Shown: positions 6,006-40,969, numbered from the stretch's first letter. The stretch: DNA of 64,000 nt from Capsulimonadaceae bacterium (GCA_965215505.1 OZ244065.1:4416001-4480000); one strand, 5' to 3'. Translations and numbers: made by a program. Notes: generated by a model not told the origin, from the letters alone.

Positions 6006-6124
6006 TCTTCTCTCTGTCTTGCCGGATGCGGCCTGCTGTCGCGAGGGGGAAAGATACACGGCAGGAATGAATGGAATAACATGAACACGCGCAAGCCCCC
6101 TGGATCTGGTGGTTAGGGATCACA

Positions 6125-6875: not shown

Positions 6876-6989
6876 ACTCGGCTCGGCACGCGGCTATGCC
6901 TGCGTAACATCAGTCAAGTCATCCTCTCCCCTTCCGATCCTCTCCTCGGTAGTTGCCCTCCGGGTAGCCAGTGCTGCGCCGGGAGAGGT

Positions 6990-9443: not shown

Positions 9444-9532
9444 GGTTCTCCTTGCGAAGCGGGCTTCTTGGGCCATTAGACCCGCCCCACACCGAGGGGC
9501 TTCAATCCGTCGGTAATCATGAAGAACGGTGT

Positions 9533-10996: not shown

Positions 10997-11010
10997 AGTA
11001 GTCCCCTGAA

Positions 11011-11051
11011 TAGTATAATCATAATTAGTATAATCGTGATTATACTAATTA
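11011..11051. promoter_or_regulatory. AT-rich operator-like palindrome upstream of the ATPase
   Basis: TAATTAGTATAATC-GT-GATTATACTAATTA (11022-11051) plus an extra TAGTATAATC at 11011. Confidence 0.7.
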
Positions 11052-11117
11052 CGGTGTGGAAACGCAAGCGTTCCAAAATCGGCATCAAGACAGTATAATC
11101 TGTCGGAGGCTTTTTGT

Positions 11118-20358: not shown

Positions 20359-22163
20359 CTAGCTGCCAGACGTATCCGGGTAGTAGTCTTCCCATGTCGG
20401 GAAGTTGTATGTCGCCGCATTGTCGAGGACAGTGACAGTTCCAGGCGGGTTAGGATTGTAATAGCTGGGCTGGCCGAACGTACTCACATAGTTCAAGTTG
20501 CACTGCCATGTCCAGTCCATCTTGTTGAGCGGTGCCCATTGAATGTCATTTCCTGGCGGCTGGTACATCATGTACGTCTGAAAACTATCGTTGATGGTCA
20601 TGTTGTCATGGGCGAAAAGACCCTCTGTTGGAGCATCGCCTGATCCTTGTTGATCCGGTGTTGTGTCAGTACTGTCAGCAGGCCAGGGTGCTCCTTCTTT
20701 ACTGGCGTAGTTGAATTCTGCATCCAAGACAGGGCCGCCGGTGTTTGTGAGTAGGTAGTATGGAGGCGGTGCGTACCGATACAGGTTGCAGAGTTGCGTA
20801 ACCTGCCAGATGCCCGCACTGCCCCAGTAGGAGCGGAACAAGTCGGGTGTTCCGACAGCCCCGTTCCAGTCGATGTTCCCTATGACTTCGACACCAGGGA
20901 CACCAGGAGTGCCGACGATGTTGACCCCTTTTGGAGTGGCATTGAACTTGAAGTAGGGCCTCCAAACTAAAACATCTCGCTTGCCGGTTACAGTGCCAAT
21001 AGACACATTGTTGATGCTGGCTTGTGCGGTACAAGAAACTGTCTGTAGAAGGCCCGAATCGTCCCCTCTACTCCAGTACCAGTGTGGAGACGGCTTCTGA
21101 TACTCAGACGGATCAACTGGATGGACGTGGCCATAGTGGGAAGCGGATGTTTCTACCACCTCAAAGCTAGCGTATGTCTGACCGGGTATGGTCCACTGGA
21201 AGTCAGACAGCGTGGCTGCTCCGGCAGTGAGGGTGCCGGAGCATCCCTGGCCGATGAGGATGTTGTCTTTCTTGTTGCTGTCTTTGGTTGTGCCTGATAG
21301 GGTGAGGATGACCGGATTGGGGGTGACGCTGTAAAAGAGGTTGACGAAATTGTCAGTTTCTTCCCAGTCGTATGCTAATGTCGTGCTGCCCGAAGTCGTG
21401 ACAGGAGGCAGAGTAATCGTAGTCGTGCCAGCAGCGGGGGCGGGGTAGATCGTATACTGTGTGGCGTAGTCGGAGGCGTCTTGCAGATACTCGATGTGAG
21501 TCGGATTGGGCAGGCCGCAACTGCAAGTGCCTGTACCCGCACCGTCGATGAACCACGATGCCCCCGCATCCTCCTCCACGATGACAGCAGGAGCCGGATC
21601 GTCCCCGTGCCAAGTCAGAGTAGCGGTGACAGTATTGGTTATAGTGTCCTGGCTCTGAAAGTCCTTTCCCTGGACTACGGGGTCAACGCTGTAGGAGACG
21701 GTGTAGCCCGAAGAGCCGGAGCCATCCTCCTGTGCGTGAGCGGGACAGACGAAGGAAAGCGTCAGGCCATTAATCAGGAGACTGAAGAGCCAGAGGATGG
21801 CCCAGGAGCGCGAGTGGCCCAGGAGCGCGAGTGGCCCAGGAGCGCGAGTGGCCCAGGAGCGCGAGTGGCCCAGGAGCGCGAGTGGCCCAGGAGCGCGAGT
21901 GGCCCAGGAGCGCGAGTGGCCCAGGAGCGCGAGTGGCCCAGGAGCGCGAGTGGCCCAGGAGCGCGAGTGGCCCAGGAGCGCGAGTGGCCCAGGAGCGCGA
22001 GTGGCCCAGGAGCGCGAGTGGCCCAGGAGCGCGAGTGGCCCAGGAGCGCGAGTGGCCCAGGAGCGCGAGTGGCCCAGGAGCGCGAGTGGCCCAGGAGCGC
22101 GAGTGGCCCAGGAGCGCGAGTGGCCCAGGAGCGCGAGTGGCCCAGGAGCGCGAGCGAGCGCAT
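20359..22163 (-). pseudogene. Secreted T/S/G-rich hypothetical protein whose signal peptide is frameshifted by a 17-bp VNTR
   Basis: GGAGG plus ATG at 22163; the 21 repeats put this ATG out of frame with the downstream ILWLFSLL...AHA-Q body. The only in-frame start upstream of the repeat is TTG 22176, which overlaps the SD. Confidence 0.65.
21798..22154. repeat. Perfect tandem repeat, 21 x 17 bp (TGGCCCAGGAGCGCGAG)
   Basis: 357 bp counted directly; no spacers or variant units. Confidence 0.97.
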
Positions 22164-24414: not shown

Positions 24415-24792
24415 TTAAGCGGGCTTGATCTCGATGGTCGCGCCCTCGGCTTCCAGCTTGGCCTTCATGGCGGCGGCGTCCTCGGCGTTTAGGCCTTCCT
24501 TGACTGCCTTGGGGGCGCTGTCCACGAGTTCCTTGGCTTCCTTCAGGCCCAGCGCGGTGATCTCGCGGACGACCTTGATGACGCTGATCTTCTTGTCGCC
24601 TGCGGCGGTCAGGACCACGTTGAACGAGGTCGGGGCCTCGGGGGCGGCGGCGACTTCTGCTGCGGGTGCGGCAGGGCCGGCGGGGGCGGCGGCGGTGACG
24701 CCGAATTCTTCCTGGAGCTGCTTGACGAAGTCGCTGAGTTCCAGAACGGTCATGCTCTTGATGGATTCCATCATTGCGGCGGTATCGGCCAT
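24415..24792 (-). CDS. rplL: 50S ribosomal protein L7/L12
   Basis: [42 protein letters not shown]. Confidence 0.98.
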
Positions 24793-24855
24793 GGGTCTAA
24801 TTCTCCTTGTAATGCGTGTACTAAATGACGTGCGTGAGGACGCTTCAATGCGTCC

Positions 24856-25422
24856 CTACGCGGCTTCGGTCGCCGCCTCGCCCGCGCCCTGCTTGTCGGC
24901 GATGGCTTGCAGCGTGAAGACGAAGTTCGAGATGATGCCGTTCAAAGTGCCCACGAAGCCCGAGATGGGCGACTGGAGCGACCCGATCATCTGCGACAGC
25001 AGGACCTCGCGCGGCGGGGTCTTGGAAAGCGCATCCACCTGAGCGGCGCTCAGGACGCGGCCGTCCATGACGCCTGCCTTGACGGACATCGCCTTGTGGT
25101 CGCGGGCATAGTCCAGCAGGATCTTGGCGACGGCCACGGGGTCGCCCTTGGCGAAGCCGATGGCAGTGGGTCCGGCGAGGAACTCGCCCATGTCGGCAAC
25201 GGGCATGGAGTCGCCCGCAGCCAGCTTGAACAGGGTGTTCTTGACGACTCGGTACTCGGCGTCCACGCCGCGCAGCTTCTTGCGAAGCTCGGTCATCTCC
25301 GCCACGGACAGGCCCCGGTAGTCGGTCAGGATCGCGGCTTTGGTCAGGCCGACCAGTTCGCGCAGCTCGCCGACGAGTTCGACTTTGGCCCCGGCGGGTT
25401 CGATCGTGTATTCGATTGCTAT
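24856..25422 (-). CDS. rplJ: 50S ribosomal protein L10, probable ATA start (GTG 25431 is the alternative)
   Basis: DYRGLSVAEMTELR, VVKNTL, GPTAIGF; SD GGAGG at 25435-25431. Confidence 0.95.
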   Translation of the reverse strand: MAIEYTIEPAGAKVELVGELRELVGLTKAAILTDYRGLSVAEMTELRKKLRGVDAEYRVVKNTLFKLAAGDSMPVADMGEFLAGPTAIGFAKGDPVAVAKILLDYARDHKAMSVKAGVMDGRVLSAAQVDALSKTPPREVLLSQMIGSLQSPISGFVGTLNGIISNFVFTLQAIADKQGAGEAATEAA

Positions 25423-25467
25423 GATGTTCACCTCCCCCGAATGTTCTTCCGAAATAATCTTCCGAAC

Positions 25468-25621
25468 AAAAATGCGCCCTGCGACTGCCGTAGACGAAGA
25501 GGGCAAGTCGCAGGGCGCATCGGGACACCTTTTGGGGTGTCCTGGACGTTCCTGTTACCTCGGCTGGCGGGCGTGTGCCCATTAACCCGCGTTTATGTTC
25601 GCGGGGCCGGCTGTCTACGGC
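25468..25621 (-). promoter_or_regulatory. L10 leader (rplJ autoregulatory RNA) with attenuator
   Basis: 5' GCCGUAGACAG...UUAAU...CCGAGG...GUCUACGGC pairing overlaps a terminator stem ATGCGCCCTGCGAC/GTCGCAGGGCGCAT followed by a U-run. Confidence 0.85.
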
Positions 25622-25645
25622 GAAATCTTATGTGGTTGTCAGAGA

Positions 25646-25699
25646 ACCCCCACCCCCCGCCCCTCCCACGCAAGCGGGAGAGGGGCGGGGGGTGGGGGT
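25646..25699. repeat. Long GC hairpin (REP-like) after rplA
   Basis: ACCCCCACCCCCCGCCCCTC...GAGGGGCGGGGGGTGGGGGT 20-bp arms around a GCAAGC-containing loop. Confidence 0.7.
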
Positions 25700-25705
25700 C
25701 CTACC

Positions 25706-26443
25706 CTATCCCTTGCCCGCCGCCACCGAGACGGCACGGAGGGGGTCAACCCGCACGGTCGGCCCCATCGTCGTGTTGATGGCGATCTTCTTGAAGTACC
25801 GGCCCTTCGCCGCCGTCGGCCGGGCCTTCTGCAAGGCGTCCAGCAGGGCGTTGAAGTTCTCCATAAGCTGGTCCGGCGTGAACGAGGCTTTGCCGATGGG
25901 GGCGTGGACGATGCCCGCCTTCTCGACGCGGTACTCGACGCGGGTGGCCTTCTTGATGTCGTTGACGGCCTGCCCGATGTTCGGCGAGACGGTGCCCGCC
26001 TTCGGGTTCGGCATCTTCTGCTTGAAGGTCGCGCCCAGACGCCCCACCTGGCCCATCATGTCGGGCGTCGCGAGGATCAGGTCGTACTGCTTCCAGTCGA
26101 GCGTCCCCTTCTGCACCTGCTCGATGATGTCCTCGGCACCTACTAGGTCCGCGCCCGCCGCCTCGGCGTCGGCGGCCTTCGGGCCTTTGGCGAAGACCAG
26201 CACCTTGCGGCTCTTGCCGGTCCCGTGGGGCAGGGTGGTGACGCCGCGCACCATCTGGTCGCCGTGGCGCGGGTCCACGCCCAGGTTGAAGGCGACGTTG
26301 ACGGTCTCATCGAACTTGGCATTGGCGAGGCTCTTCGCCAGCTCCATCGCGGGCATGGGGTCGAGCAGCTTCTCGGGGTCGGTCTGCTTGGCGAGCGCCT
26401 GGTAGCGCTTGCCGATTGTCTTCACGCGGTCTTGCTTTCGCAT
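25706..26443 (-). CDS. rplA: 50S ribosomal protein L1
   Basis: KFDETV, LGVDPRHGDQMVRG, LPHGTGK, MPNPKAGTV, TTMGP. Confidence 0.98.
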   Translation of the reverse strand: MRKQDRVKTIGKRYQALAKQTDPEKLLDPMPAMELAKSLANAKFDETVNVAFNLGVDPRHGDQMVRGVTTLPHGTGKSRKVLVFAKGPKAADAEAAGADLVGAEDIIEQVQKGTLDWKQYDLILATPDMMGQVGRLGATFKQKMPNPKAGTVSPNIGQAVNDIKKATRVEYRVEKAGIVHAPIGKASFTPDQLMENFNALLDALQKARPTAAKGRYFKKIAINTTMGPTVRVDPLRAVSVAAGKG

Positions 26444-26449
26444 CTTCTG

Positions 26450-26489
26450 TCTCCTTGTGGTGCTGACGGGCGTTCGAGGCCCTCCCACA
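26450..26489 (-). promoter_or_regulatory. Putative L1-binding site before rplA
   Basis: GUGGGAGG...ACCACAAGGAG next to the rplA SD, resembling known L1 operator sites. Confidence 0.65.
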
Positions 26490-26496
26490 GACGCCG

Positions 26497-26667
26497 TTAG
26501 AACGGCGGTCTCGCCTTGCGCTTGTTTGAGGTCTTATCGGGCGTGTGCAGATCCTGCCAGTAGTCCCGCGTCCACCAGGCGATGGCCGCGCCAATGAGAA
26601 GTGCGACCACGATGAGTTTGACCCATAGCGGTGTATTCGGCGACAGCAGGATCTTCAGCAACGTCAT
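26497..26667 (-). CDS. Small 56-aa single-TM protein between rplK and rplA
   Basis: [56 protein letters not shown]; its ATG overlaps the rplK stop (TAATG). Confidence 0.65.
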   Translation of the reverse strand: MTLLKILLSPNTPLWVKLIVVALLIGAAIAWWTRDYWQDLHTPDKTSNKRKARPPF

Positions 26668-27089
26668 TACCCGATGTCAATGCCCATCGAGCGGGCCGTG
26701 CCGGCGATGATCTTCATCGCCGCCTCGGTGTCGTTGGCGTTCAGGTCCGGGGCCTTCGTCTCGGCGATGGAGCGGAGCTGTTCGGGGGTGATCTTGGCGA
26801 CCTTGGTCTTGTTGGGCGTCCCCGACCCGCTCGGGATGCCGGCGGCCTTCTTCAGAAGGTCGGCGGCGGGCGGGGTCTTGGTGACGAACGTGAACGACCG
26901 GTCCTCGTAGATGGTGATCTCGACGGGGACGATGGAGCCGATCATCGCGGCCGTCCGCTCGTTATAGCCCTTGATGAACTCCATCATATTGATGCCGTAG
27001 CCGCCCAGCGCGGGGCCGACGGGCGGCGCGGGGGTCGCCTTGCCGGCGTTGATCTGGAGCTTGACGACTCCGGTGATTTTCTTTGCCAT
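26667..27089 (-). CDS. rplK: 50S ribosomal protein L11
   Basis: [35 protein letters not shown]. Confidence 0.98.
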
Positions 27090-27110
27090 GTGTCTGTGAT
27101 GTCCTTAATG

Positions 27111-27238
27111 ACCTCTCCCCGCCGCAAGCGGCGACCCTCCCCTGTTAAGGGAGGGTGAGAAGTGAGGCGTCTGCCTGTGCTGTTTTGTCTTCACCCTTCC
27201 TTAACAGGGAGGGGTCGGCGCTTGCGCCGGGGGTAGGT
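27111..27238. repeat. REP-like inverted doublet between nusG and rplK
   Basis: ...CCCTGTTAAGGGAGGGTGA... and ...TCACCCTTCCTTAACAGGG... form ~50-bp imperfect inverted arms with GCAAGC/GCTTGC hairpins. Confidence 0.7.
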
Positions 27239-27768
27239 TACGAAATCTTCTCGATCTGGCTGAACTCCAGCTCGACCGGCGTGTCACGCCCGAAGATGGA
27301 GATAAGCACCTTGACCTTGTCCTTGGGCGCGTTGATCTCCTGAATGCTGCCCGTGAAGTCCCCGAACGGGCCGGAGTTGACGCGCACCGCCTGGCCGACT
27401 TCCCACTTGGGGCGGATGTACGGCTTGGTGTCGGACTCCTCGATGGCCTTGCGGATCTCGCGGATCTCCGAATCCTTGACGATGGTCGGCTTGGCGTCGC
27501 CGACGAACCCGATCACGCCGGTCGTACTCTTGACCAAGTACCAGGTGTTGTCGTCGAGTACCATCTCGACGAAGACATACCCTGGGAAGACCTTGCGGTC
27601 TATTTCGCTCTTCTTGCCCTGACGGACGCGCGATTCCTTCTCGGTCGGAACGAGGATGTCGAACACTTTGTTCTTCAGCCCCATCGTCTCCGCCCGGCGC
27701 TCGACGTTCGTCTTGACTTTCTTCTCGTGGCCCGAATAGGTGTGGACCGCGTACCAATGCTTCTGCAT
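27238..27768 (-). CDS. nusG: Transcription termination/antitermination factor NusG
   Basis: WYAVHTYSGHE, FPGYVFVEM, KOW GPFGDFTG, IFGRDTPVELEF. Confidence 0.98.
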   Translation of the reverse strand: MQKHWYAVHTYSGHEKKVKTNVERRAETMGLKNKVFDILVPTEKESRVRQGKKSEIDRKVFPGYVFVEMVLDDNTWYLVKSTTGVIGFVGDAKPTIVKDSEIREIRKAIEESDTKPYIRPKWEVGQAVRVNSGPFGDFTGSIQEINAPKDKVKVLISIFGRDTPVELEFSQIEKIS

Positions 27769-27786
27769 AGTTTTTAGATCGTCTTT

Positions 27787-28122
27787 TTAGTGGCGCCCGC
27801 CGTTGAACAGCGGCGCGGCGAGATGAGTCAGCAGGGCGTCGATGCCCCCGACCCAGATGGCGACGGCCAGGACGAAGGCCAAAACCACCGAGGTGGACTT
27901 GGTCAGCACGTCCCGGTTCGGCCAGGACGTCTTCTTCAGCTCCACCCAGGCCTCCTGGAAGAACTGCTGCGGGCTGGCTGGCTGCGCCTTCGCCATGGAC
28001 TGCGCGCGCCGCTGCGCCTCGGCCGTGATGCCGGTCCGGGCCGGCGCGGCGGGCTTGCCGGCGGGCGTCCCCTTCTTGGGGCCGGTCGGCTTCGGGTCCG
28101 GGGTTTTATAGGTTTCCGCCAT
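27787..28122 (-). CDS. secE: Preprotein translocase subunit SecE
   Basis: FFQEAWVELKKTSWP plus one TM helix, directly upstream of nusG. Confidence 0.92.
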   Translation of the reverse strand: MAETYKTPDPKPTGPKKGTPAGKPAAPARTGITAEAQRRAQSMAKAQPASPQQFFQEAWVELKKTSWPNRDVLTKSTSVVLAFVLAVAIWVGGIDALLTHLAAPLFNGGRH

Positions 28123-29763: not shown

Positions 29764-30540
29764 ATGCTGCGGATGAAAGACGTGCCGCCGGACCAGATGG
29801 CGGAGGTCGTGCGGGTGGCGGGCGAACTCTACGACGCTGAGAAGGCACAGGCCCAGGAGCGACGCGCCACCGTCGCCGCCGCCGCCGAGATGGGCCTGCC
29901 GAAAGAGTACCTGGACCGGGCCGCCGAGCTTGTCCACGCCCGCCGGGTGGAGCAGATCGGCAGGCAGCGCCGCCGCCGGGCCGGCCTGTTCGCCGGCATC
30001 GGCGTTGCCGTCGCGCTCGGGGGCGGTTGGTTCGTGACCCACCCCCAGCCCGCCGCCCCCGTGGTTTACAGCTTCCAGACGGGGCAGTGGAACCTGGAAA
30101 CCGACCCCGCCTCCAAAGCCGCCGTGACCTCCGCGGACGGGGCCGCCACCATCCACGTTGACCACTTCGGGACGTCCGCCGGGGCTGACCAGTTTTTCGT
30201 CAACCTCAACACCAAAGACGTGCCTAAAACGCTTGTAGGCTACCGCACCGTCAGCTTCCGCGCCAGGAGCCTCGGGCTGGCCCATCTCCGTCTCTACCTG
30301 GAGAACGGCGACGAGCGATGGCGCTCCGCCAACCTCGCGGTGCCGACCGGCGGGCAGGTGTTCCGGCTTGACCTCCGCCAGTTCGACCACCAGACCCGCG
30401 ATGTGTCTACGGGCAAGTGGCAGAAGGTGGGGGCGAGCGCGCCGGGCCACGTCGAGCAGTTGTCCTTTAAAGTCGGCTACTACGTTAACAACGCGGACGC
30501 GCATGGGGATGTCCAGGTCAGTGACTTACGGTTCCAGTAG
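29764..30540 (+). CDS. Bitopic membrane protein: helical N-domain, TM, CBM/CIA30-like beta-sandwich
   Basis: RRRR then a hydrophobic helix; C-terminal GYRTVSFRAR...LDLRQF...VEQLSF...VQVSDLRF. Confidence 0.65.
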   Translation: MLRMKDVPPDQMAEVVRVAGELYDAEKAQAQERRATVAAAAEMGLPKEYLDRAAELVHARRVEQIGRQRRRRAGLFAGIGVAVALGGGWFVTHPQPAAPVVYSFQTGQWNLETDPASKAAVTSADGAATIHVDHFGTSAGADQFFVNLNTKDVPKTLVGYRTVSFRARSLGLAHLRLYLENGDERWRSANLAVPTGGQVFRLDLRQFDHQTRDVSTGKWQKVGASAPGHVEQLSFKVGYYVNNADAHGDVQVSDLRFQ

Positions 30541-32170
30541 GCCGGGTGCCTGGGCCGCCTACCGCGGACCGGGCGGCGATGCGGCGCTTCTGAGCCGTCT
30601 GATTGGCCCTGGCGCAGGGGCGCAGAACGGCGCAGTCTGGGGCCTCGGAGCGCACGGCGGGGTAGCGGAACCGGCGCGACTGATGTGCGCGCCCGGCGGG
30701 CTGATCCGGGCGCAAATTGGCACGGACGAAGAAGCCGGGTGTTCCGCCACAATCGCCCCGGATGGCGGCACTCTGACGCTGGCCTGTGACCCGTTCGGCC
30801 TGCACGGCGTCTTTTATACCCGGATCGGCGGCACATTCTGGGCCGCATCCGACCCGTGCCTCCTCCGAAATCTGCCCGGCGCTTCGGGTGGCCTGTCGCC
30901 CGATGCGCTGCACGGCTATCTGTGTTTCTCCCATGTGCCGACGCCGTTGACCATGACGGCGGGCGTCTCGGCCCTTCCCGCCGGGCACCGGCTGATGGTC
31001 ACGGCGGGGCATGTACAGGAAGAACATGGCCCGGCCTGGCGCGAGCGGGAGCCGACGCCGCTTGACGAAGACGCCCTCGCCGGGGAACTGCGCGGCCTGC
31101 TCCGGGCCGCCGTCGCCCGCCGCCTGGGGAACGATTTGGACGTCGCCGTCTTCCTCTCAGGCGGCCTGGACAGCAGCCTCATCGCCGCCCTGCTGGCGGA
31201 GGCCGGGGCGCGCGTTCACCTGTTCACGCTGGACTTCGGCCCGCCGTTCGACGCCGAACTGGCCTGCGCGCATCAGGTGGCCGCGCACCTGAAACGGCCA
31301 TTGCACGTCGTCCCGGCCCGGCCCGCCCAGATACGCGGCGCGCTGGAGGCGACCGGGGCGGCGATGCAGCAGCCCCTCGGCGACGGCGTCGCCGTTCCCT
31401 TGTACCTGCTGGGACAGGCGGCGCGGGCGCACGGCCTGACTACCGCTTTCAACGGCGAGGGCGGCGACCAGCTTTTCGGCGGCTGGGCCAACAAGCCGAT
31501 GATCGCCGCCGAGCTATACCGCCCGACAGGGGGAGACTTGGAGGCCGACCGCGAGGCCGCCTACCTCGCGACTTACCACCGCTTCTGGGGCCTCACCGAT
31601 CAGTTTTACACGCCGCAGGCGCGGGAGGCTATTACTGGGCTGGACGCCGGGGCTTGGGTGCGTCCGGCCCTCAGTGCCGACGGCTCTCCCAGCCCCAGCC
31701 TGCTGCACCGCCTGCGGGCCGCCAACCTGCGGCTGAAAGGGGCGCAGAACATCGCGCCGCGCGCCGTCCAACTGGGCGCGGCGCACGGCCTGCGTGTCCA
31801 GATGCCGCTCTTCGACCGGGCGCTGACGGAGTGGACCTTCGGCCTGCCCTCCGAGTGGTTCCTGCGCGGCGCGTGCGAGAAGTACGGGCTGAAGCGAGCC
31901 GCCGAGGCATTTCTGCCGTTCGAGATCGTCTGGCGCGAGAAGCGCGGCATGGGCGTCCCGGCCACCGAGTGGTGCCTGGGGCCACTGGGCCGAGAAGTCG
32001 CACACTGGCTTTCGCCGCGACGGCTGAAGCGGGACGGCCTGTTTGAACCCGATGCCGTTGCCCGTCTCCGGCGCGGCGAGGACCAGGGAGGCGAGTTCCG
32101 GCGTCGCCGCGTGGGCGAAAAGCTTTGGGCCTTGCTGATGCTCCACGTCTGGCGCGAAACACACCCATGA
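30503..32170 (+). CDS. Asparagine synthetase-like protein 1 (no N-terminal Cys)
   Basis: DPFGLHGVFY, SGGLDSS PP-loop, NGEGGDQLFGG, EKRGM; start may be 30503, 30509 or 30521. Confidence 0.85.
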   Translation: MGMSRSVTYGSSRPGAWAAYRGPGGDAALLSRLIGPGAGAQNGAVWGLGAHGGVAEPARLMCAPGGLIRAQIGTDEEAGCSATIAPDGGTLTLACDPFGLHGVFYTRIGGTFWAASDPCLLRNLPGASGGLSPDALHGYLCFSHVPTPLTMTAGVSALPAGHRLMVTAGHVQEEHGPAWREREPTPLDEDALAGELRGLLRAAVARRLGNDLDVAVFLSGGLDSSLIAALLAEAGARVHLFTLDFGPPFDAELACAHQVAAHLKRPLHVVPARPAQIRGALEATGAAMQQPLGDGVAVPLYLLGQAARAHGLTTAFNGEGGDQLFGGWANKPMIAAELYRPTGGDLEADREAAYLATYHRFWGLTDQFYTPQAREAITGLDAGAWVRPALSADGSPSPSLLHRLRAANLRLKGAQNIAPRAVQLGAAHGLRVQMPLFDRALTEWTFGLPSEWFLRGACEKYGLKRAAEAFLPFEIVWREKRGMGVPATEWCLGPLGREVAHWLSPRRLKRDGLFEPDAVARLRRGEDQGGEFRRRRVGEKLWALLMLHVWRETHP

Positions 32171-33270
32171 AATGCATCCACTGTAACACGGACACCACCT
32201 ACCCGGTGCGGCGCGGCAACGGGGGCCGCTGCCGCTCTTGTCAGCACCCGTTCGCCTTCGAGCCGAAGACCGACGCGCTCGGCGTCGCCGACGGTCTGTT
32301 CCAAAGGGCGGTCAAGGACGTGTCCGGCGACAGGGCCGTCTTCTTCACCGAGGGCCAGTTGTGGTATGAGTTCAACCGCCGCCTGCTCCGCAAAAAGGTC
32401 CCCGTCTCGTCCGGCTCGGTCCTGATCGGTGTCAGTGGTGCCGGCGGGGTCGTCGTCGCCCTCGCCGCCCACACCTTCTGGCCGCTCGCGTTCATCACCG
32501 TCCCCGGCGTCATCGGCGGGGCCTTGCTGCGCGCCCGCGCCAAGCGCGCCAACATGCTCCCGCACCCCCTGATCTCGACGGGCGGGTTTCATGCCAAGTA
32601 CCTGACCCGTTGGAGCGCGGTACATGGCCCGATCCCGAAGCTCCTGCCGCCCGTCGTTTCCCAGCCCGCGCCCGCCGCGCCGCCCTCGGACATCTCCGCG
32701 TTCAGCTTCGACCGCGCCCTGGTCACGGACCACGCCGCCGTCGCCGCCATGCTGGTCGCCAACAACTTCCACTTCGAGAACAACTGTGCCATCCTGAGCG
32801 CGGACGGCTACCCGCAGCACGTCGGGGCCACTCTGATGACCATGCTGCGGCGCAACCCGCGCCTGCGCGTCTTCGCCGTGCATGACGCTTCGGAGGCCGG
32901 CTGCGGGCTGCCGCTGGAACTGCGGCGGGAAGGCTGGTTCCCGGACCCATCCGTCCAGGTCTTCGACCTGGGCCTGCGGCCGAGCCACGTCCTGAAGATG
33001 CGCCCGATCTCGTTGCCGGGCGGGTCGCGCACTCTGCCGCCCGCCCTGCGCGCCACGCTCGCGCCCGAGGAGGCGGCCTGGCTGGAAGGGGGAACCAGCG
33101 TGGGCCTGGAGGTCGTCCGCCCGGCCAAGCTCATGCGCTCGATCTATCAGGGCTTCGCCCGCGCCGACCAGGCCGGTTCCGTCGGCGGCGGTGACATGGG
33201 CGGAGACGGCATCATTATTTGGGGATACGACGGCGGCGCGGACATCCAGGCGGCGGACAGTTTCGGCTAG
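32167..33270 (+). CDS. Zn-ribbon + 2TM + TOPRIM-like protein with Gly/Asp-rich tail
   Basis: CxxC...CxxC; two hydrophobic helices; GYP...VFAVHDASEAG...LGLRPSH; ATGA overlap with the upstream gene. Confidence 0.7.
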   Translation: MKCIHCNTDTTYPVRRGNGGRCRSCQHPFAFEPKTDALGVADGLFQRAVKDVSGDRAVFFTEGQLWYEFNRRLLRKKVPVSSGSVLIGVSGAGGVVVALAAHTFWPLAFITVPGVIGGALLRARAKRANMLPHPLISTGGFHAKYLTRWSAVHGPIPKLLPPVVSQPAPAAPPSDISAFSFDRALVTDHAAVAAMLVANNFHFENNCAILSADGYPQHVGATLMTMLRRNPRLRVFAVHDASEAGCGLPLELRREGWFPDPSVQVFDLGLRPSHVLKMRPISLPGGSRTLPPALRATLAPEEAAWLEGGTSVGLEVVRPAKLMRSIYQGFARADQAGSVGGGDMGGDGIIIWGYDGGADIQAADSFG

Positions 33271-33296
33271 AAAACATTTATGGTTAGAAGTCAGGC

Positions 33297-34994
33297 ATGA
33301 ACGACTTTTTCGGTGTTTACGGCGTCCCCGACCCGGCCCGCGCCCTGCGGTCCCTGGGCATCACGCCGGCTTGGAGCGATGCGGACGTGGCCTTCGGCGG
33401 TGCCCCGGTCTGGGCGGACTCGTCCGGGACGGTCATCGCCTGCGGCGAGCTGATACTCGACAACGCCGAGGAGTTGCGCCGAATGCTCGACCGACCCCAA
33501 GCCGAGCCGGGGGCGCTGCTGGCCGAACTCGCCCTGTGCCACGGTGACCAGGCCGGCAAATACGCGCGCGGCATGTTCGCCGTCGCCCTGTGGAACACGC
33601 GCGAGAAGACTTTGACCCTCCTGCGTGACGGGGTGGGGGCGCGGACGCTCTACTATGCCTCTTCGGGCCGTGCCTGCTGGTTCGGGGCGCGCCTGCGCGC
33701 CCTCCGCCGCTGCCCCGCCGTGTCCGACGCCCTCTCACTGCCCGCCCTCCGCGACTACCTCACCTGTGCCTTCGTGCCCGGCGCGCAGACACTGTGGCGG
33801 GACGTGTCCGAGCTGCGGCCCGGCACGGCGCGGGTCTGGCCCGGCGGTGCCACGCACTCCCACTGGGAGCCGGCGGAGGACGCCTCGGACTGGGCCGCCC
33901 CGATGGAGACACACGCCGCACGCCTGCGCGTTCTGCTGGAAGAGGCCGTGCGCGACTGCCTCCCCGCCACGGGTCCGACCGGCGTCTTCCTCTCGGGTGG
34001 ACTGGACAGCAGCCTGGTCGCGGCCCTTGCCGCCCGTGACGTGCCCGGACCGCTGCACACGTTCGCCATCCACTTCGGGCCGGAGTACCCGCACGAGCTG
34101 GAATACTCGGACCTGGTCGCGCGGCACTGCGGGACGCATCACCACGTCATCGCCCTGCCCGCCAAAAAGATCCGCGAGGCGCTGCCCGAGACGATGGCCG
34201 CCCTGGACGACCCCATCGGGGACCCTTTGACCACGCCGAACCTCATCCTGGGCCGGGCGGCCGCCGCCGAGACCGGCGTGGTCCTGAACGGCGAGGGCGG
34301 CGACCCCTGCTTCGGCGGCCCCAAGAACCTGCCCATGCTCCTGCACGAGCTTTACGGGGGGGGGCCTGACAGTGAACAGACGGGCCGTGCGGGGGCCTAC
34401 CTGCGCGCCTTCCAGAAGTGCTATGACGACCTGCCGCGCCTGCTCCTGCCGGATGTCCGGACGGCACTGCGCGCCTCGCCGCCCGAGGCGTTACTCACCC
34501 CGCTGCTGGACGATGAGGCTTCGGCACACTATCTGAACCGCCTGATGTACGTCAACACGCGCTTCAAGGGGGCCGACCACATTCTGACCAAGGTGAGCAA
34601 CCTGACCTCGGTGTGCGGCCTGCTGGGGCGCTCCCCACTGTTTGACCGCCGCGTCGTCGGGGCGAGCTTCGCCATCCCGCCCGAATTCAAGCTGTCCGGG
34701 GCCAGCGAAAAGGCCGTGCTGAAACGCGCCGTGGCCGACCTCCTGCCGGAAATCATTTTGACCCGCCCTAAGAGCGGAATGCTGGTGCCGGTGCAGGCCT
34801 GGTTCGCCCGCGATCTGCGCCCGATGGCCCGCTCCCTGCTCCTCAGCCGGCGCTCCCGCATCCGCCCATACCTGGACCAGACCCTGGTGCGCGAGTGGCT
34901 GCAAGGCCGCCCCCACCTGCGCCCCCGCGCGGGCGTCAAGCTGTGGCTCCTGCTGACGCTTGAGCTATGGCTGCGGGCGAATGAGGCGGAATGA
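33297..34994 (+). CDS. Asparagine synthetase-like protein 2 (no N-terminal Cys)
   Basis: MNDFFGVYG in place of MCGI; GMFAVALW, RDGVGARTLYY, SGGLDSS, NGEGGDPCFGG, RPKSGM. Confidence 0.9.
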   Translation: MNDFFGVYGVPDPARALRSLGITPAWSDADVAFGGAPVWADSSGTVIACGELILDNAEELRRMLDRPQAEPGALLAELALCHGDQAGKYARGMFAVALWNTREKTLTLLRDGVGARTLYYASSGRACWFGARLRALRRCPAVSDALSLPALRDYLTCAFVPGAQTLWRDVSELRPGTARVWPGGATHSHWEPAEDASDWAAPMETHAARLRVLLEEAVRDCLPATGPTGVFLSGGLDSSLVAALAARDVPGPLHTFAIHFGPEYPHELEYSDLVARHCGTHHHVIALPAKKIREALPETMAALDDPIGDPLTTPNLILGRAAAAETGVVLNGEGGDPCFGGPKNLPMLLHELYGGGPDSEQTGRAGAYLRAFQKCYDDLPRLLLPDVRTALRASPPEALLTPLLDDEASAHYLNRLMYVNTRFKGADHILTKVSNLTSVCGLLGRSPLFDRRVVGASFAIPPEFKLSGASEKAVLKRAVADLLPEIILTRPKSGMLVPVQAWFARDLRPMARSLLLSRRSRIRPYLDQTLVREWLQGRPHLRPRAGVKLWLLLTLELWLRANEAE

Positions 34995-35007
34995 CCTTCC
35001 TACCTTC

Positions 35008-35031
35008 GTAGGGGCGGGGTTCCCCCGCCCT
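35008..35031 (+). repeat. GTAG-type REP-like palindrome
   Basis: GTAGGGGCGGGGTTCCCCCGCCCT. Confidence 0.7.
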
Positions 35032-35068
35032 CTGGTCCTGATATGTCGCTGTGAAAGACAACCACCCA

Positions 35069-35794
35069 ATGACCTTCCTCCCGCTCCCCCTCCAAAACGG
35101 CCTCCTGCTGGACCTCACCGACGGTGCCCACCCCACGCAGGTCTTCGGCTGGACTGACGGCGTTCTGGACCTGCCGCCCGGCGCGACCCACTACGGCATG
35201 GTCACGGAGGGGGAGGCTGGACTGACCTTCGACGGCGGCCACTTCCGCCTGCGGCCCGGCATGTACTTCGTCCTCCCCGCCCAGGCAACACTCTCCGGGG
35301 CGGGCAGCCGGGGCCTGGTCGTCTCGCGGCTCGGCTACACTGGTCTGACCCAGTGGGGCGGGCCGGTGGAGGCGCAGGGCCGCCTGCGCTACATTGACGG
35401 CTGCTCCGACACCCTCCTCGTCTGCCCGCCCCAGAAGGGCGAGCCTTGCCTCAACCACCTGCACATCCCGCCCCGCACCAGCCAGTCCGCGCACACGCAC
35501 CCCTCGGAGCGCATCGGCGTCATCCTGCGCGGCGCGGGCGAGTGCCGCACACCGGACGGCACCTTCGCGCTGGCCCCCGGCATGGGCTGGCGCATCCCCG
35601 CCGGGTGTGAACACTCCTTCTTCACGACCGAGGCGAGCCTGGACGTCATCGCCTGGCACCCTGACTCCGACTTCGGCCCCACCCACGATGACCACCCCAT
35701 GGTCAACTTGACTCTGGTGGGCGGCGTCTCCGCCGCGCAGATTGACGCCATTCGGACCGGGGAGCTGAATGAAAGGAAACCCAATGGAAATTAA
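35069..35794 (+). CDS. Bicupin metal-binding protein
   Basis: HTHPSERIGVILRGAG...EHSFFT cupin motifs; YIDGCSDT; HPDSDFGPTHDDHPM. Confidence 0.8.
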   Translation: MTFLPLPLQNGLLLDLTDGAHPTQVFGWTDGVLDLPPGATHYGMVTEGEAGLTFDGGHFRLRPGMYFVLPAQATLSGAGSRGLVVSRLGYTGLTQWGGPVEAQGRLRYIDGCSDTLLVCPPQKGEPCLNHLHIPPRTSQSAHTHPSERIGVILRGAGECRTPDGTFALAPGMGWRIPAGCEHSFFTTEASLDVIAWHPDSDFGPTHDDHPMVNLTLVGGVSAAQIDAIRTGELNERKPNGN

Positions 35795-36302
35795 CATCAG
35801 CCCCGCGCCCCCCGACTGGCGCAAGACCGTCGCAGAGCGCACCCCGCTCTACGGCCACCGCAACTGGATCGCCGTCGTGGACTCCGCCTACCCCGCCCAG
35901 TCCCAGGGCGGCATCGAAACCATCGTTGCCGACGCCGACCAGGCCGAGGTCGTGGGGGCCGTGCTGCAAGCGCTGTCCGCCTCCCGGCATGTGCGCCCCG
36001 TCGTCTACACCGACGCCGAACTGGCCTTTGTAGACGAAGACGACGCCCCCGGCGTCACCGCCTACCGCCGGCAGCTCGCGGCGGTCCTGGGGGACAACGC
36101 CGCGACCGGCCTGATCCACGAACAGATCATCCAAAGGCTGGACGAGGCGGGGCAGACGTTCCGCATCCTCATCGTGAAGACGGACATGACGATCCCCTAC
36201 ACCTCTGTTTTCTTCCAGCTCGACTGCAAATACTGGAGCGCCGAGGCGGAGCAGCGGTTGCGCGCCCGGATGCCCGCCGAGACACCGGAGGCGGCCAAGT
36301 GA
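35784..36302 (+). CDS. RbsD/FucU-like (sugar mutarotase/pyranase fold) protein
   Basis: YGHRNWIAVVDSAYP and IVKTDMTIPYTSVFF. Confidence 0.7.
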   Translation: MEINISPAPPDWRKTVAERTPLYGHRNWIAVVDSAYPAQSQGGIETIVADADQAEVVGAVLQALSASRHVRPVVYTDAELAFVDEDDAPGVTAYRRQLAAVLGDNAATGLIHEQIIQRLDEAGQTFRILIVKTDMTIPYTSVFFQLDCKYWSAEAEQRLRARMPAETPEAAK

Positions 36303-36850
36303 CGACGACAGCCATGTCCCTCAGAGCCGGCATTGAGATCGTGGAAGCGGCCATTGACGACAAGCCGATCCTGCGCCAACTTCTGGAGCTGTACCAGTAC
36401 GACTTCAGCGAGTTCGAGGGGACGGACGTCGGGCCGCACGGCGTTTACGGATACCGCTATTTGGACCACTACTGGACGGAGCCTGACCGCCACCCCTATC
36501 TTATCCGCGTGGACAGCCGCCTCGCGGGCTTCGCCCTCGTCAACCGCCACGCCGTCAGCGGCGAGGATCGCCGGTCACTCGCCGAGTTCTTCGTGATGCG
36601 GAAGTACCGGGGGCGAGGCGTCGGCGAATTCGCCGCCACCCGCGTCTTCGACCTCTGGCCTGGGAAATGGGGGGTCGCGCAGGTTGCCTCCCACCCAGGC
36701 TCCTCCGCCTTCTGGCGCAAGGTCATCCGCCGGTACACGCGCGGCGAGTTCGAGGAGCGCCAGGCCGAGTGGGGCGGACAGCACGGCCCCGTACAACTCT
36801 TCGACAACTCGGGCCGCGCAGCGGTGGGGGAGGAAGGCGCGGAGTCATAA
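36299..36850 (+). CDS. GNAT N-acetyltransferase
   Basis: LYQYDFSEF, AEFFVMRKYRGRGVG, AFWRKVI. Confidence 0.88.
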   Translation: MTTTAMSLRAGIEIVEAAIDDKPILRQLLELYQYDFSEFEGTDVGPHGVYGYRYLDHYWTEPDRHPYLIRVDSRLAGFALVNRHAVSGEDRRSLAEFFVMRKYRGRGVGEFAATRVFDLWPGKWGVAQVASHPGSSAFWRKVIRRYTRGEFEERQAEWGGQHGPVQLFDNSGRAAVGEEGAES

Positions 36851-38066: not shown

Positions 38067-39164
38067 ATGCCCGTCGCTGAACCTCCCGTAAGTCTGCCCG
38101 TCCCTGGACTCCCCCTGGAGCCGCTCATTCCTAAAATTCCATTCGAGGCACCTCTTTCCGGCCTGCGCTTGAGGCTGCCCATCGCCCAACTCGCTGCCTC
38201 CCTCGGCCTGCTCCAGAGTCTCCAGGGGGAATGGATCGGCACCGGCTTCAACCTGATCTGGCGGCCCAACTTCGCGCCCATCGGCGGGGTACCCAGCGAC
38301 CATTTCCTGGAACTCAACTTGACCCAGGAGATCACGAAACTCGACTTCATCGGGGCACCGATCCCGAACCGTGGGCTGGCGCAGCCGGACCAGACCCTGT
38401 TCGGCCTCCACTACTTGCAGCAGGTCAGTGACCTCGTCACGCGCGGGGCGCTCCACATCGAGCCGGGCATCTGGGTCAACATGACCGACCCGACGACGCA
38501 GCCCAAAGTCGCGCCCGCCGTCGCCCGACTCTCCACCATCCCGCACGGCAACGCCCTGGTCGCACAGGGCGAGGCCGCCAACTTCCCCGGCGGACCCGTC
38601 TTCACGCCCGCCAACGTCAACCCCTTCCCCATCGGCGGGGGACCGCAGATCCTCCCGCTTTTCCCTGAGCTAAACCTGGCGGTCCCCACTTCCTTCCGCA
38701 GCAGTCCCATACCCCCACCTCCTGGGCTGCCCCCGGCGATGGCCCCGGCGGTTTTTCAGAATGTGGTGCATAACCCGAACCTGATGCTGTCTAACGCCAT
38801 CGCGGGCCAGAAGATCCTCAACACGACGGTGATCACGGTCGCGACCTCGGCCAGCATCCCCTCCTTCACCGTCGCGAACAAACCGGCCCCCGTGGTCACC
38901 CCCAATGGCGAGGGAGGTGTCGAGAACATCGCCTTCCTGAACTCGGCCGCAGGCACCCCACCGGTCCCTGTTGCGCCCCATAACCTCCCCAACGCCAATG
39001 CCGCGGAACTCTTCGCCACCTTCTGGATCGAGGAGGTGCAGAACCCGCTCGGCGCGGGCACTTTCCTCCAACTCCAGTACACGCAGACTGTCTATCTGAA
39101 CTTCGCCGGTCTCACCTGGCCGCACGTCTCCGTCGCCACCCTGGTCAAGTCGAGCGTCGTCTAG
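38067..39164 (+). CDS. Heme-binding protein (FMP-type peroxidase / nitrobindin-like barrel)
   Basis: LQGEWIGTGFNLIWRP, IPNRG, LHYLQQVSD, LHIEPGIW, TIPHGN, LQYTQTVYLNF..WPHVSVATL. Confidence 0.7.
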   Translation: MPVAEPPVSLPVPGLPLEPLIPKIPFEAPLSGLRLRLPIAQLAASLGLLQSLQGEWIGTGFNLIWRPNFAPIGGVPSDHFLELNLTQEITKLDFIGAPIPNRGLAQPDQTLFGLHYLQQVSDLVTRGALHIEPGIWVNMTDPTTQPKVAPAVARLSTIPHGNALVAQGEAANFPGGPVFTPANVNPFPIGGGPQILPLFPELNLAVPTSFRSSPIPPPPGLPPAMAPAVFQNVVHNPNLMLSNAIAGQKILNTTVITVATSASIPSFTVANKPAPVVTPNGEGGVENIAFLNSAAGTPPVPVAPHNLPNANAAELFATFWIEEVQNPLGAGTFLQLQYTQTVYLNFAGLTWPHVSVATLVKSSVV

Positions 39165-39221
39165 CCGACGGCCCCCTGCCCCCACCGACAGCGGGGGCGG
39201 GGCCATTCAGGAACAAAATCC

Positions 39222-40331
39222 ATGCCGCAGCTTCGATCCAACCCAAGCACGGGCCTCGCCTCGGACGTCACCGGCAGCGCCGCCGCCAACCTCGGCACGC
39301 TCAACCCGATTCCGGTGCCCCGAAAAAGCCCGCCCGCCTTCACGCTGGCGGACATCTCCCCCGCCGTCGCCACGCAGCATCTCGTGTTCCACGCGGGCGG
39401 CGACTCGGGTGGCACGAACCAGCAGACCCAGGAAAAACTCGCCGCAGCCATGGCGACGGACGCGCCGCTCGGCCAAAGCCCGGCGTTCCTGCTGCACCTC
39501 GGCGACGTCATGTACGGTGCCGGCAAGGATGCCGAGTATTTGGACCGGTTCTACCGGGCCTACGCGGGCTATCCCCACCCGATCGTCGCGATTCCGGGCA
39601 ACCACGACGGGGAGGTACGTTCGGGAACGGACCCGTCGAGCCTGCGGGCGTTCTGGGCCAACTTCTGTGCCGCCGCCGCCGCCGTGCCGGGCGACGTCGC
39701 GCAGACGGGCATCACCCGCACCACGATGACTCAGCCCGGCGTCTACTGGCAGATGACCTCGCCCCTGGCCGACATCATCGGCCTGTACACGAACTCCGGC
39801 GAGAACGGCGGCACACTTGAGGACGGGCACGGCGACCAGAGCCAGAAGGATTTCCTCGGTGCCGCCCTCGCCGGCATCGCCGCCCGGCGGGCCGCCGGGC
39901 CGCGCAAGGCCTTGGTGCTGGCGACCCACCACCCGCCCTTCAGCAGCAGCGGGCACGCCGGGAGCACGCTGCTGCTAAGTCAGATCGATGCCTCCTGTTC
40001 CACGGCGGGCGTCTACCCGGACCTGGTCCTGAGCGGACACGCGCACAACGACCAGATCTACTCGCGGCGCTTCACGTTCGGCGGTGCCGCCCTGACCGTC
40101 CCGTACTACGTCTGCGGGACGCTCGGCTTCGGACTCCAGGCGGTGGCCGAGCCGACCGGCACCACGACCCAGGGCACGTTGGGCGGCACGATCACTTATG
40201 CGCTGGGCAAAGAAGCCTACGGGTATTTGATCGTCCAGGTGACCGCGTCCCAGATCACCGTCACCGTCAGGACGATGTCGGCGGGCGGCACCGTCAGCGA
40301 CGCCGACACCCGGACCTATCCATTGGTCTGA
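39222..40331 (+). CDS. Calcineurin-like metallophosphoesterase
   Basis: GDSG, HLGDVMY, PGNHD, HHPP, SGHAH. Confidence 0.88.
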   Translation: MPQLRSNPSTGLASDVTGSAAANLGTLNPIPVPRKSPPAFTLADISPAVATQHLVFHAGGDSGGTNQQTQEKLAAAMATDAPLGQSPAFLLHLGDVMYGAGKDAEYLDRFYRAYAGYPHPIVAIPGNHDGEVRSGTDPSSLRAFWANFCAAAAAVPGDVAQTGITRTTMTQPGVYWQMTSPLADIIGLYTNSGENGGTLEDGHGDQSQKDFLGAALAGIAARRAAGPRKALVLATHHPPFSSSGHAGSTLLLSQIDASCSTAGVYPDLVLSGHAHNDQIYSRRFTFGGAALTVPYYVCGTLGFGLQAVAEPTGTTTQGTLGGTITYALGKEAYGYLIVQVTASQITVTVRTMSAGGTVSDADTRTYPLV

Positions 40332-40360
40332 CACACTGGTCCAATACAAGTGATGACACC

Positions 40361-40969
40361 ATGAGCCACTATTTTCAAAACCATACGACGCCGCTCGACC
40401 GCGTTCCGGTGCCCGACGCCGGGCCGCTCCCCGTCAGCACCTACCTGTCGATCACCGGCGAATTCGACCACATCTCGCCGCTTTCCAGCGCCACCGGGAG
40501 GCCGGACGAGCGGCACGTCTTCCTCTGGGTCAACGTGACGACCGGGACCTATCAGGGCAAGTATGAGGCCGCCATAGATGTCCACTCCAACCGGCCCGGC
40601 AGCGGGGAGGCCGACCCCGAAGAGGTGAAGTACCACCTGGCGGTGGAGGCCGTTCAGGAGAGCGGGTGGCCCCCCATCGGGGTCAACACGCGCGCCCGGC
40701 TTTCCTTCGTCGGTCTGGGGCTGCATGAGAGCGATTTCACCCTGGCGGAAGAGGACGACCTGCATCATCTGGTGCAGGAATATGCCTCCAACTGTGACCG
40801 CATCTCCGTCTTCGGGATGTCCTATACCAACGGCAGAGGGCTGCATGACGTTCATAGGAACGGGGGTGAGAACCAGGACGGCGCGATCGCCTTTTATTAC
40901 GACGCCGCGAACGGCGGTCCGCTCGTGCGGTGGCTGTTCCTGAAGTTCCAGCAGCCCGTCCTGCCCTGA
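40361..40969 (+). CDS. DUF2278/YukJ-like protein
   Basis: YEAAIDV, VFG, GLHDVHRNGG, QDGAI, FLKFQQ. Confidence 0.65.
   Translation: MSHYFQNHTTPLDRVPVPDAGPLPVSTYLSITGEFDHISPLSSATGRPDERHVFLWVNVTTGTYQGKYEAAIDVHSNRPGSGEADPEEVKYHLAVEAVQESGWPPIGVNTRARLSFVGLGLHESDFTLAEEDDLHHLVQEYASNCDRISVFGMSYTNGRGLHDVHRNGGENQDGAIAFYYDAANGGPLVRWLFLKFQQPVLP

Follow-up and report, generated by a model that had tools for sequence, protein, structure and literature searches.

Beta-lactam synthetase (BLS), CarA and the hydroxyamidotransferase TsnB9 share the two-domain asparagine synthetase (AS) fold, an SGGxDS PP-loop and a GEG(G/S)D motif. Among carrier proteins, LysW is a small zinc-ribbon protein with an acidic C-terminal tail, and the amino-group carrier proteins (AmCPs) are soluble, about 55 residues long, carry a terminal Glu and receive their load from ATP-grasp ligases. 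In AmCP pathways, intermediates are tethered to the carrier protein and processed by the pathway enzymes (PMC11726168). FzmA from fosfazinomycin biosynthesis is an AS-like enzyme with ATP-dependent carboxylate activation, a 22-residue FzmZ and a glutamyl nitrogen donor (PMC13622209), and PesC from nitrilobacillin biosynthesis is an AS-like modifier of a ribosomal peptide C terminus (PMC13060819). Here we describe a gene module in a 64,000-nucleotide stretch of the genome of a Capsulimonadaceae bacterium (GCA_965215505.1, OZ244065.1:4416001-4480000; this whole stretch is referred to as the window). Unlike BLS, CarA and TsnB9, the module has two AS-like paralogs, A1 and A2, which travel with a membrane-anchored protein, Z, that combines a zinc ribbon with a Toprim-like domain. 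We favor, at a probability of roughly 0.45, a reading in which Z is the membrane hub of a two-ligase, amide-forming complex.

The conserved unit consists of five genes, U, A1, Z, A2 and a cupin gene, and is smaller than the seven-gene span in which it lies (window positions 29764-36850). The five genes are located as follows:

29764-30540, plus strand: U, no Pfam or NCBIfam match
30503-32170, plus strand: A1 (AsnB1), Pfam Asn_synthase (E 1.6e-62), no GATase domain
32167-33270, plus strand: Z, sub-threshold match to PF21180 (Topo VI-A Toprim; 16.5 bits against a cut-off of 24.1)
33297-34994, plus strand: A2 (AsnB2), Asn_synthase (E 3.7e-73) and GATase_7 (E 6.4e-13)
35051-35794, plus strand: two-barrel cupin, Cupin_2 (E 1.1e-14) in two stretches

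The original prediction, made from the sequence of the window, had described seven co-oriented genes with overlapping or near-abutting ends, and both the listing of open reading frames (ORFs) and the junction sequences bear this out. The A1 ATG at 30503 lies 38 nt ahead of the U stop codon (TAG, 30538-30540), and A1 and Z share an ATGA at 32167-32170. These two overlaps suggest that U, A1 and Z are translationally coupled in the window.

To assess conservation, one genome per species was scanned for Z, which turned up encoded in 383 stretches; the 80 best loci were retained, with phyla (about 11) read from record titles, and genes were assigned by best match. The loci come from Armatimonadota, Poribacteria, Dehalococcoidia, Blastocatellia, many Cyanobacteria, Longimicrobiaceae/Gemmatimonadota, metagenome-assembled genomes of Clostridia, Myxococcota, Turneriella, Planctomycetota and Actinomycetota. 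A well-flanked subset of 52 loci has at least 5 kb on either side of Z. The genes found with Z were:

A1 beside Z: 71 of 80 loci, 47 of 52 well-flanked loci
A2 beside Z: 60 of 80 loci, 40 of 52 well-flanked loci
both A1 and A2 beside Z: 54 of 80 loci, 37 of 52 well-flanked loci
A1 or A2 beside Z: 77 of 80 loci, 50 of 52 well-flanked loci
U or its counterpart u with Z: 59 of 80 loci, 40 of 52 well-flanked loci

Since the arrangement recurs in 77 of 80 loci, it is not a product of chance, and the gene order is conserved in genomes across about 11 phyla. Two layouts were found. In type I loci (Armatimonadota, Gemmatimonadota and others), U, A1, Z, A2 and the cupin gene follow one another on a single strand. 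In type II loci (cyanobacteria, Blastocatellia and others), the order is u, A1, a decarboxylase, one to three copies of Z, and a convergent A2. Cupin orthologs occur in 14 of the 80 loci and a LysA-like pyridoxal phosphate (PLP)-dependent decarboxylase in 52, with no locus (0/80) holding both. The two also occupy the same slot upstream of A1 in loci of the Myxococcota/Planctomycetota type, where the decarboxylase is found in L053 and the cupin in L055, L057 and L078. Cupin and decarboxylase are therefore mutually exclusive, the decarboxylase taking the place of the cupin. The decarboxylase is LysA-like at a score below the family cut-off (243 bits against 298), and it also matches the exosortase-associated decarboxylase family TIGR03099 (101 bits against a cut-off of 478). 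Separately, some of the clusters that the ESM Atlas lists as feature-neighbors of the cupin are dominated by viral (Uroviricota) proteins, a lead that gained no support at the sequence level.

Both ligases contain FLSGGLDSS, and the synthetase motif reads NGEGGDQ in A1 and NGEGGDP in A2; the two proteins are 36% identical over 403 residues. In an alignment of 36 A1 orthologs, the PP-loop SGGxDS and the NGEGGDQxFGGW..KP segment are invariant, and in a 36-sequence alignment of A2 the PP-loop SGGxDS and the GEGxD synthetase motif are likewise invariant. A2 begins with MNDFFGVYG, has no in-frame start further upstream in its ORF, and keeps a recognizable N-terminal nucleophile (Ntn)-type domain that lacks the nucleophile. 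A1 begins with MGMSRSV and has a degenerate N-terminal domain, with an extension of about 14 residues and Ala at the aligned nucleophile position. The original prediction had stated that both paralogs keep the PP-loop and GEGGD while lacking the N-terminal Cys, and the motifs read in the ORFs, the Pfam matches and the ortholog alignments all agree with this; its further statement that both carry MNDFFG in place of MCGI holds for A2 and fails for A1. Across orthologs, Met-Cys is absent from the aligned N termini of A2 (58 orthologs); in L004, L007 and L011 the aligned residue is a Cys, but one that follows Phe or Leu. Among the rows listed for the 67 A1 orthologs, the would-be nucleophile is V, I, L or A in most, the exceptions being L038, L065 and L055, which read MSGICG. 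Judged by these motifs, A1 and A2 are AS-like ligases, presumably adenylating, in which the glutaminase nucleophile is absent and the adenylation motifs are kept.

A metagenomic protein of 1141 residues (P0260) joins an A1-type half (NGEGGDQLFAGW) to an A2-type half (NGEGGDPCFGGPKN). As a single Rosetta-stone case, this fusion suggests that A1 and A2 act jointly and speaks for the heterodimer that the original prediction had raised as a possibility, although, since it is found on one contig only, loss of a stop codon or faulty sequencing could account for it.

A1 and A2 score below the cut-off of all NCBIfam AS families. For instance, A1 and A2 reached 154.3 and 216.0 bits for glutamine-hydrolyzing AsnB (TIGR01536; cut-off 267.1), 62.1 and 121.8 bits for lasso cyclase (NF033535; cut-off 525), and 64.7 and 79.1 bits for macrolactam cyclase (NF033561; cut-off 300). 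The XrtA/PEP-CTERM amidotransferase family TIGR03108 was among the best NCBIfam matches, at 170 and 203 bits against a cut-off of 817. Among PDB sequences, the solved structure nearest to A2 is the hydroxyamidotransferase 7ylz (E 5.9e-32); other matches of the ligases are AsnB 1ct9 (E 3.7e-14), CarA 1q15 (E 1.3e-12) and BLS 1jgt (E 2.8e-10). The XrtA/PEP-CTERM system (TIGR03108 and TIGR03099) resembles the module in pairing an AsnB-like enzyme with a LysA-like PLP decarboxylase; the module differs in that its scores fall far below the cut-offs, its surroundings hold no conserved exosortase and its ligases lack the nucleophile Cys.

Z is a protein of 367 residues composed of a CxxC...CxxC zinc ribbon with a helical domain, a transmembrane (TM) hairpin, a Toprim-like domain and a tail. 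In its AlphaFold2 (AF2) model (predicted local distance difference test score, pLDDT, 81; predicted template modeling score, pTM, 0.78), the TM helices span residues 82-101 and 105-128, the Toprim-like domain is a four-stranded alpha/beta unit at 183-338, and the tail at 339-367 is disordered and acidic/Gly-rich, placing the terminal Phe-Gly (FG) about 29 residues from the folded domain. Foldseek returned Topo VI-A (1d3y) as the best PDB match (E 9e-3, probability 1.0); the top seven matches were all Topo VI-A chains (probability 0.93-1.0), with JetD and MksG ranked lower. The model and these matches uphold the description of the middle gene as encoding a membrane zinc-ribbon/Toprim-like protein. 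At the sequence level, a Z profile searched against PDB sequences gave only non-significant matches to RpoP-type zinc ribbons (best E 0.22), and PF21180, which the Z of the window misses, scores 40.5 bits on the relative P0121. Z thus shares the alpha/beta fold of the Topo VI-A/Spo11 Toprim domain (also seen in JetD and MksG), yet it is membrane-anchored, conserves FHFENNC, HDA and DLG and, as far as strand order can map them, not the Glu and DxD, lacks a 5Y-CAP or nuclease partner, and has an enzyme as its predicted partner.

The residues that are invariant in Z across phyla are the four Cys, S180-F181-D182, N199, F201-H202-F203-E204-N205-N206-C207-A208, H239, G245 and F366-G367. By a mapping that rests on strand order only, D, E, Q or N follows strand 1, and H-D-A is the motif that follows strand 3. 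Among the candidates scored, 570 Z homologs were found at E<=1e-3, and a profile search of a 1.84-billion-protein representative library gave 1655 family representatives at 50% identity with E<=1e-3, a number that falls to 1174 with E<=1e-10 and to 531 with E<=1e-30. The source names of the homologs, among the matches listed, are "hypothetical protein" or a zinc-ribbon-based RpoP label. When fusions of Z to other domains were sought among longer proteins, only Z-Z tandems in one polypeptide were found (P0258, P0259, P0121 and P0122; 686-845 residues), and in P0258 the FG end is present on the second Z copy only.

The resemblance to JetD and MksG, together with the AS superfamily membership of A1 and A2 and their weak lasso cyclase matches, is what would speak for an ordinary or already known function, namely ammonia-dependent Asn synthesis, a lasso or macrolactam cluster for a peptide that is made by the ribosome and modified after translation (RiPP), or an anti-phage Toprim nuclease. 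We consider this the least probable of the explanations, and a very improbable one, given that every curated cut-off is missed and that strict co-occurrence with Z is unexpected for a housekeeping Asn synthase. A lasso or other RiPP cluster was rejected because Pfam scans of the window neighbors and of L026 showed no B-protease, no RiPP recognition element (RRE; PF05402 or other) and no short precursor; the conserved short ORF clusters that were spot-checked overlap large genes and were therefore read as shadow ORFs. Anti-phage defense was rejected as well. Searching PADLOC-DB 2.0 with nine proteins gave only a weak QueC match for A1 (E 1.8e-4), tblastn with Z and the cupin gave zero matches in 50,697 phage records, and the window locus lies in the core chromosome. 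The latter follows from the housekeeping cluster secE-nusG-rplK-rplA-rplJ-rplL at window 24415-28100 (minus strand), directly upstream of the MATE gene next to the module. No mobile-element genes were found beside this cluster at the window locus, which places the module in the core chromosome and not on an island.

To model the complex of A1 with full-length Z, we used paired own alignments of 36 rows and included ATP and Mg. The ipSAE interface confidence scores of three runs were 0.83, 0.82 and 0.85, whereas the best of three controls scored 0.00; both partners had a pLDDT of 80 or more, and the runs agreed on 68% or more of their contacts. When the tool was calibrated, 58 of 80 solved complexes came up to the mark, as did 2 of 110 mismatched pairs, counts that apply only roughly to A1-Z because of its own alignments and the ligand present. 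We know of no solved AS-Toprim complex, so a pass through model memory seems unlikely. The predicted interface comprises residues 54-58, 166-182, 197-209, 216-233 and 319-327 of Z and residues 331-342, 353, 356, 398-401, 449-457 and 528-533 of A1. It uses family-invariant residues on both sides: 178-182 and 197-209 (the FHFENNC loop) of Z, and K331, P332 and A335 of A1, which lie just downstream of the NGEGGDQLFGGW motif. The model supports binding of A1 to the invariant FHFENNC loop of Z.

The same interface bears on whether Z could be a catalytic partner. In that case, the Toprim-like domain (C207, H202, H239, D240 and D267) would replace the dead glutaminase domain, with Z releasing or activating a nucleophile, or holding an acyl intermediate on Cys207, for the bound ligase. 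The polar residues are invariant across phyla, and in the model the loop bearing E204, N205, N206 and C207 contacts A1 beside the active-site motif of A1. However, such chemistry is known in no Toprim domain, the PP-loop and E319/D322 of A1 are not in the contact list, and the counterparts of the Toprim Glu and DxD are not kept, as far as strand-order mapping goes. We consider a catalytic Z improbable.

The C terminus of Z is the feature that raises the question of whether Z is itself modified. A Phe-Gly end was found in 93 of 96 Z ORFs in the loci, the rest being one LG end and two truncated ORFs. Every tandem Z paralog keeps it, and so do 234 of 257 fetched family proteins, in which residue -4 is mostly D or E, with S, G, A, T, Q and V also seen. 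This pattern is consistent with Z acting as substrate or carrier, in which one or both ligases would adenylate either the carboxylate of the C-terminal Gly or an acidic residue at position -4 and join it to ammonia or to an amine from the decarboxylase or cupin. The Toprim-like domain would then possibly be the recognition element, as a RiPP leader is, and the tail the core; the outcome may be a modified membrane protein, or conceivably a small molecule made on a protein scaffold. The distance of the disordered tail from the folded domain fits such a role, as does the predicted docking of A1 on the folded domain of Z beside the active-site motif of A1. Moreover, 15 of the 80 loci carry two or three tandem Z genes, like the multiple precursors of RiPP clusters. 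Precedents can also be cited: AS-like FzmA (PMC13622209) and PesC (PMC13060819) derivatize peptide C-terminal carboxylates, and AmCPs are an example of carrier-tethered biosynthesis (PMC11726168). The module resembles the FzmA and PesC systems in encoding an AS-like enzyme beside a ribosomal product with a conserved C terminus; those systems use short peptides and an RRE, whereas the module has a 367-residue membrane protein, no RRE and no nucleophile Cys. Z likewise differs from LysW and the AmCPs in its size, its TM hairpin, its FG end and its AS-like partners, and Pfam scans of the window neighbors and L026 found no ATP-grasp gene.

We regard the substrate or carrier role, the main alternative to the hub, as possible but doubtful. 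The tail lies outside the confident A1 interface, position -4 is not always acidic, and no protease, RRE, exporter or release enzyme is conserved with the module. A 367-residue membrane protein is also unlike known scaffolds, and a divergent Streptomyces relative, described below, lacks the FG end. Six Nostoc loci (L058, L062, L064, L068, L069 and L075) have Z ends reading QSFG and no A2 within 10 kb. As all six are Nostoc by record title, we counted them as one evolutionary event, and the link between QSFG and a missing A2 is weakened by several D/E-tailed loci that are also without A2 nearby. In its boldest form, the substrate reading would make Z a new kind of membrane-anchored scaffold whose FG carboxylate is adenylated by glutaminase-less AS-type ligases and amide-linked to an amine from the co-encoded decarboxylase or cupin, which we likewise hold to be doubtful though possible. 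If true, this would be a logic of C-terminus derivatization or carriage distinct from the thioester carriers of the acyl and peptidyl carrier protein type, from LysW-type carriers and from ubiquitin-like E1 systems, present in at least 11 phyla. Were FG the substrate, a new protein modification or carrier mechanism would be directly testable by mass spectrometry.

U also appears to be a membrane protein. Its AF2 model (pLDDT 86) shows at the N terminus a helical hairpin (residues 9-82) that continues into a TM segment, and at the C terminus a beta-sandwich, whose best PDB matches by Foldseek are CBM11, CBM29 and CBM4 (carbohydrate-binding modules, CBMs; E 1.3e-7, probability 1.0). Because a run of RRRRR precedes the TM segment, U is probably a single-pass membrane protein with the N terminus inside and the ectodomain outside. 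The anticipated membrane CBM-like partner can therefore be identified as the first gene, with its CBM11/CBM29-like ectodomain. In 14 loci a U ortholog is the gene immediately upstream of A1. The 207-residue u of cyanobacterial-type loci is homologous to U in the hairpin and TM segment (83 columns; HHalign probability 96.9, E 1.5e-10), while the ectodomains differ. Among U-type proteins, only the cytosolic hairpin, with the TM segment, is common across lineages.

A further alternative is envelope decoration, in which A1 and A2 would amidate carboxylates (of a uronic acid or meso-diaminopimelate, for example) on a glycan or peptidoglycan precursor linked to the membrane. The LysA-like decarboxylase would supply the amine, Z would only anchor the enzymes, and U would read the polymer outside the cell. 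AsnB-type enzymes that amidate meso-diaminopimelate are known, as are amide-decorated uronic acids. All non-enzymatic partners are membrane proteins, the U ectodomain is CBM-like, and TIGR03108 (for A1 and A2) and TIGR03099 (for the decarboxylase) are among the matches, though far below cut-off. Envelope decoration is nevertheless unlikely in our judgment, as the module has no conserved glycosyltransferase, flippase or polymerase at its side, conservation does not extend to the MATE gene, and the FG end and the FHFENNC loop are left unexplained.

The reading that we favor, with Z as the hub of a two-ligase complex, can be laid out as follows; the topology of Z, the role of its tail and the chemistry beyond adenylation are parts that we infer. 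Z would be anchored in the inner membrane by its hairpin, with the zinc-ribbon and Toprim-like domains both in the cytoplasm, and would serve as the assembly hub. The FHFENNC loop, together with the preceding PDxTAYSFDR segment, would clamp the A1 helix directly after NGEGGDQxFGGW. The flexible acidic tail with its terminal Phe-Gly may be a docking tip for the second ligase or an accessory enzyme, by analogy with the C-terminal tip of single-stranded DNA-binding protein (SSB), which recruits partner proteins. A1 and A2 would each activate a carboxylate by adenylation and link it to an amine that is already formed (ammonia, or what the decarboxylase or cupin yields), giving one or two amide bonds on the inner side of the membrane. 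U would be anchored alongside the ligases, its CBM-like ectodomain tying the complex to the state of the envelope.

Several observations weigh against this hub model. The polar invariants H239, D240 and D267 lie where Toprim folds classically have their ligand face, and they suit a catalytic or ligand site better than a passive hub. Of the 52 well-flanked loci, 12 have no A2 within 10 kb and 5 have no A1. The A1 orthologs that read MSGICG (L038, L065 and L055) may, to judge from their N termini, use glutamine after N-terminal processing. In the complex model, the FG tail of Z lacks confident placement on A1, and the A1-Z ipSAE is a model confidence and not a measurement. Lastly, the conserved module is known from genes and models.

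Two plasmid-borne relatives extend the comparison. A complete type II module lies at 4238-11056 of L081, the plasmid Cy782202 of Gloeothece verrucosa PCC 7822, which is 474 kb long, conjugative by PLSDB, and carries protelomerase and PEP-CTERM sorting-domain genes near the module. L082, from a linear plasmid of Streptomyces sp. NBC_01237, encodes at 3671-11494 a divergent Z-like Toprim domain that keeps HDAS, has no clear zinc ribbon and is without the FG end. It lies near a cupin gene, a Cys-less AsnB-like gene and an aldehyde dehydrogenase gene, and may be a distant variant of the module. A Z-like domain without FG near a cupin and an AsnB-like gene would mean that the partnership between Toprim-like and AS-like proteins may reach further than the FG tail.

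The original prediction had called the cluster a candidate undescribed system, and the existing annotation is in keeping with this. RefSeq names the genes of the Gloeothece PCC 7822 plasmid copy, in order, hypothetical protein, asparagine synthetase B family protein, decarboxylase, hypothetical protein and asparagine synthase-related protein, and no description of the module was found in the full-text literature, a search that left subscription-only papers and bioRxiv supplements outside. The enzymes are of known kind; the partnership with Z, the FG end and the sensor-like partner U/u are not described in the literature so covered. The Z family, with more than 1100 representatives at 50% identity, is nearly always accompanied by the same AS-like ligase pair under generic annotation. 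Working out the product would assign a function to four or five conserved gene families, would widen the known chemistry of the AS superfamily, and would bring out a role for a membrane-bound Toprim-like domain that apparently binds an enzyme and not nucleic acid. The module is present in model cyanobacteria (Nostoc and Anabaena), so genetics is feasible.

The remaining two genes of the seven-gene span are:

35769 (or 35784)-36302, plus strand: RbsD/FucU-like protein, weak (PF05025, E 1.1e-4; 23.1 bits against a 25-bit cut-off)
36299-36850, plus strand: GNAT acetyltransferase (PF00583 Acetyltransf_1, E 2.9e-7)

Both are linked to the operon in the window by overlapping ends: either start of the RbsD-like gene (35769 or 35784) precedes the cupin stop at 35794, and the RbsD-like and GNAT genes share a GTGA at 36299-36302. 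The original prediction had counted them in a seven-gene system and had suggested that the upstream MATE gene and the convergent PhyH gene might belong to it. The core of U, A1, Z, A2 and cupin stands, while all four of these genes were ruled out as members, since tblastn (1e-5) and phmmer (1e-3) found homologs of none of them in the 80 loci; they are local neighbors outside the module. The Phe-Gly end of Z, the exchange of cupin for decarboxylase and the predicted A1-Z complex go beyond the original prediction. A scan of the locus for promoters and terminators was uninformative.

Only one other gene recurs near Z, an RCK-domain K+ channel (TrkA_N and Ion_trans_2) found in 12 loci. In 11 of them, from at least four phyla, it lies just upstream of U or u, about 4-6 kb upstream of Z (L001, L003, L012, L014, L017, L024, L032, L033, L041, L055 and L080), and is divergent in most; in the twelfth (L054) it lies about 10 kb downstream of Z. 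The window is without such a gene. Such a neighbor may point to some tie with ion or osmotic homeostasis. Clusters of short-chain dehydrogenase/reductase and sensor-kinase genes also occur near Z, at variable positions and probably by chance.

Further downstream in the window, at 38070-40969 (plus strand), lie three genes that are missing from the 80 related loci; they encode a heme-binding protein of the FMP type (NF040572, 232 bits), a metallophosphoesterase and a protein with DUF2278. Between window positions 19445 and 21797, ORF picking gave no long high-GC3 ORF, and the GC content, about 68% over the window, dips locally to 0.576 at 20001-22000.

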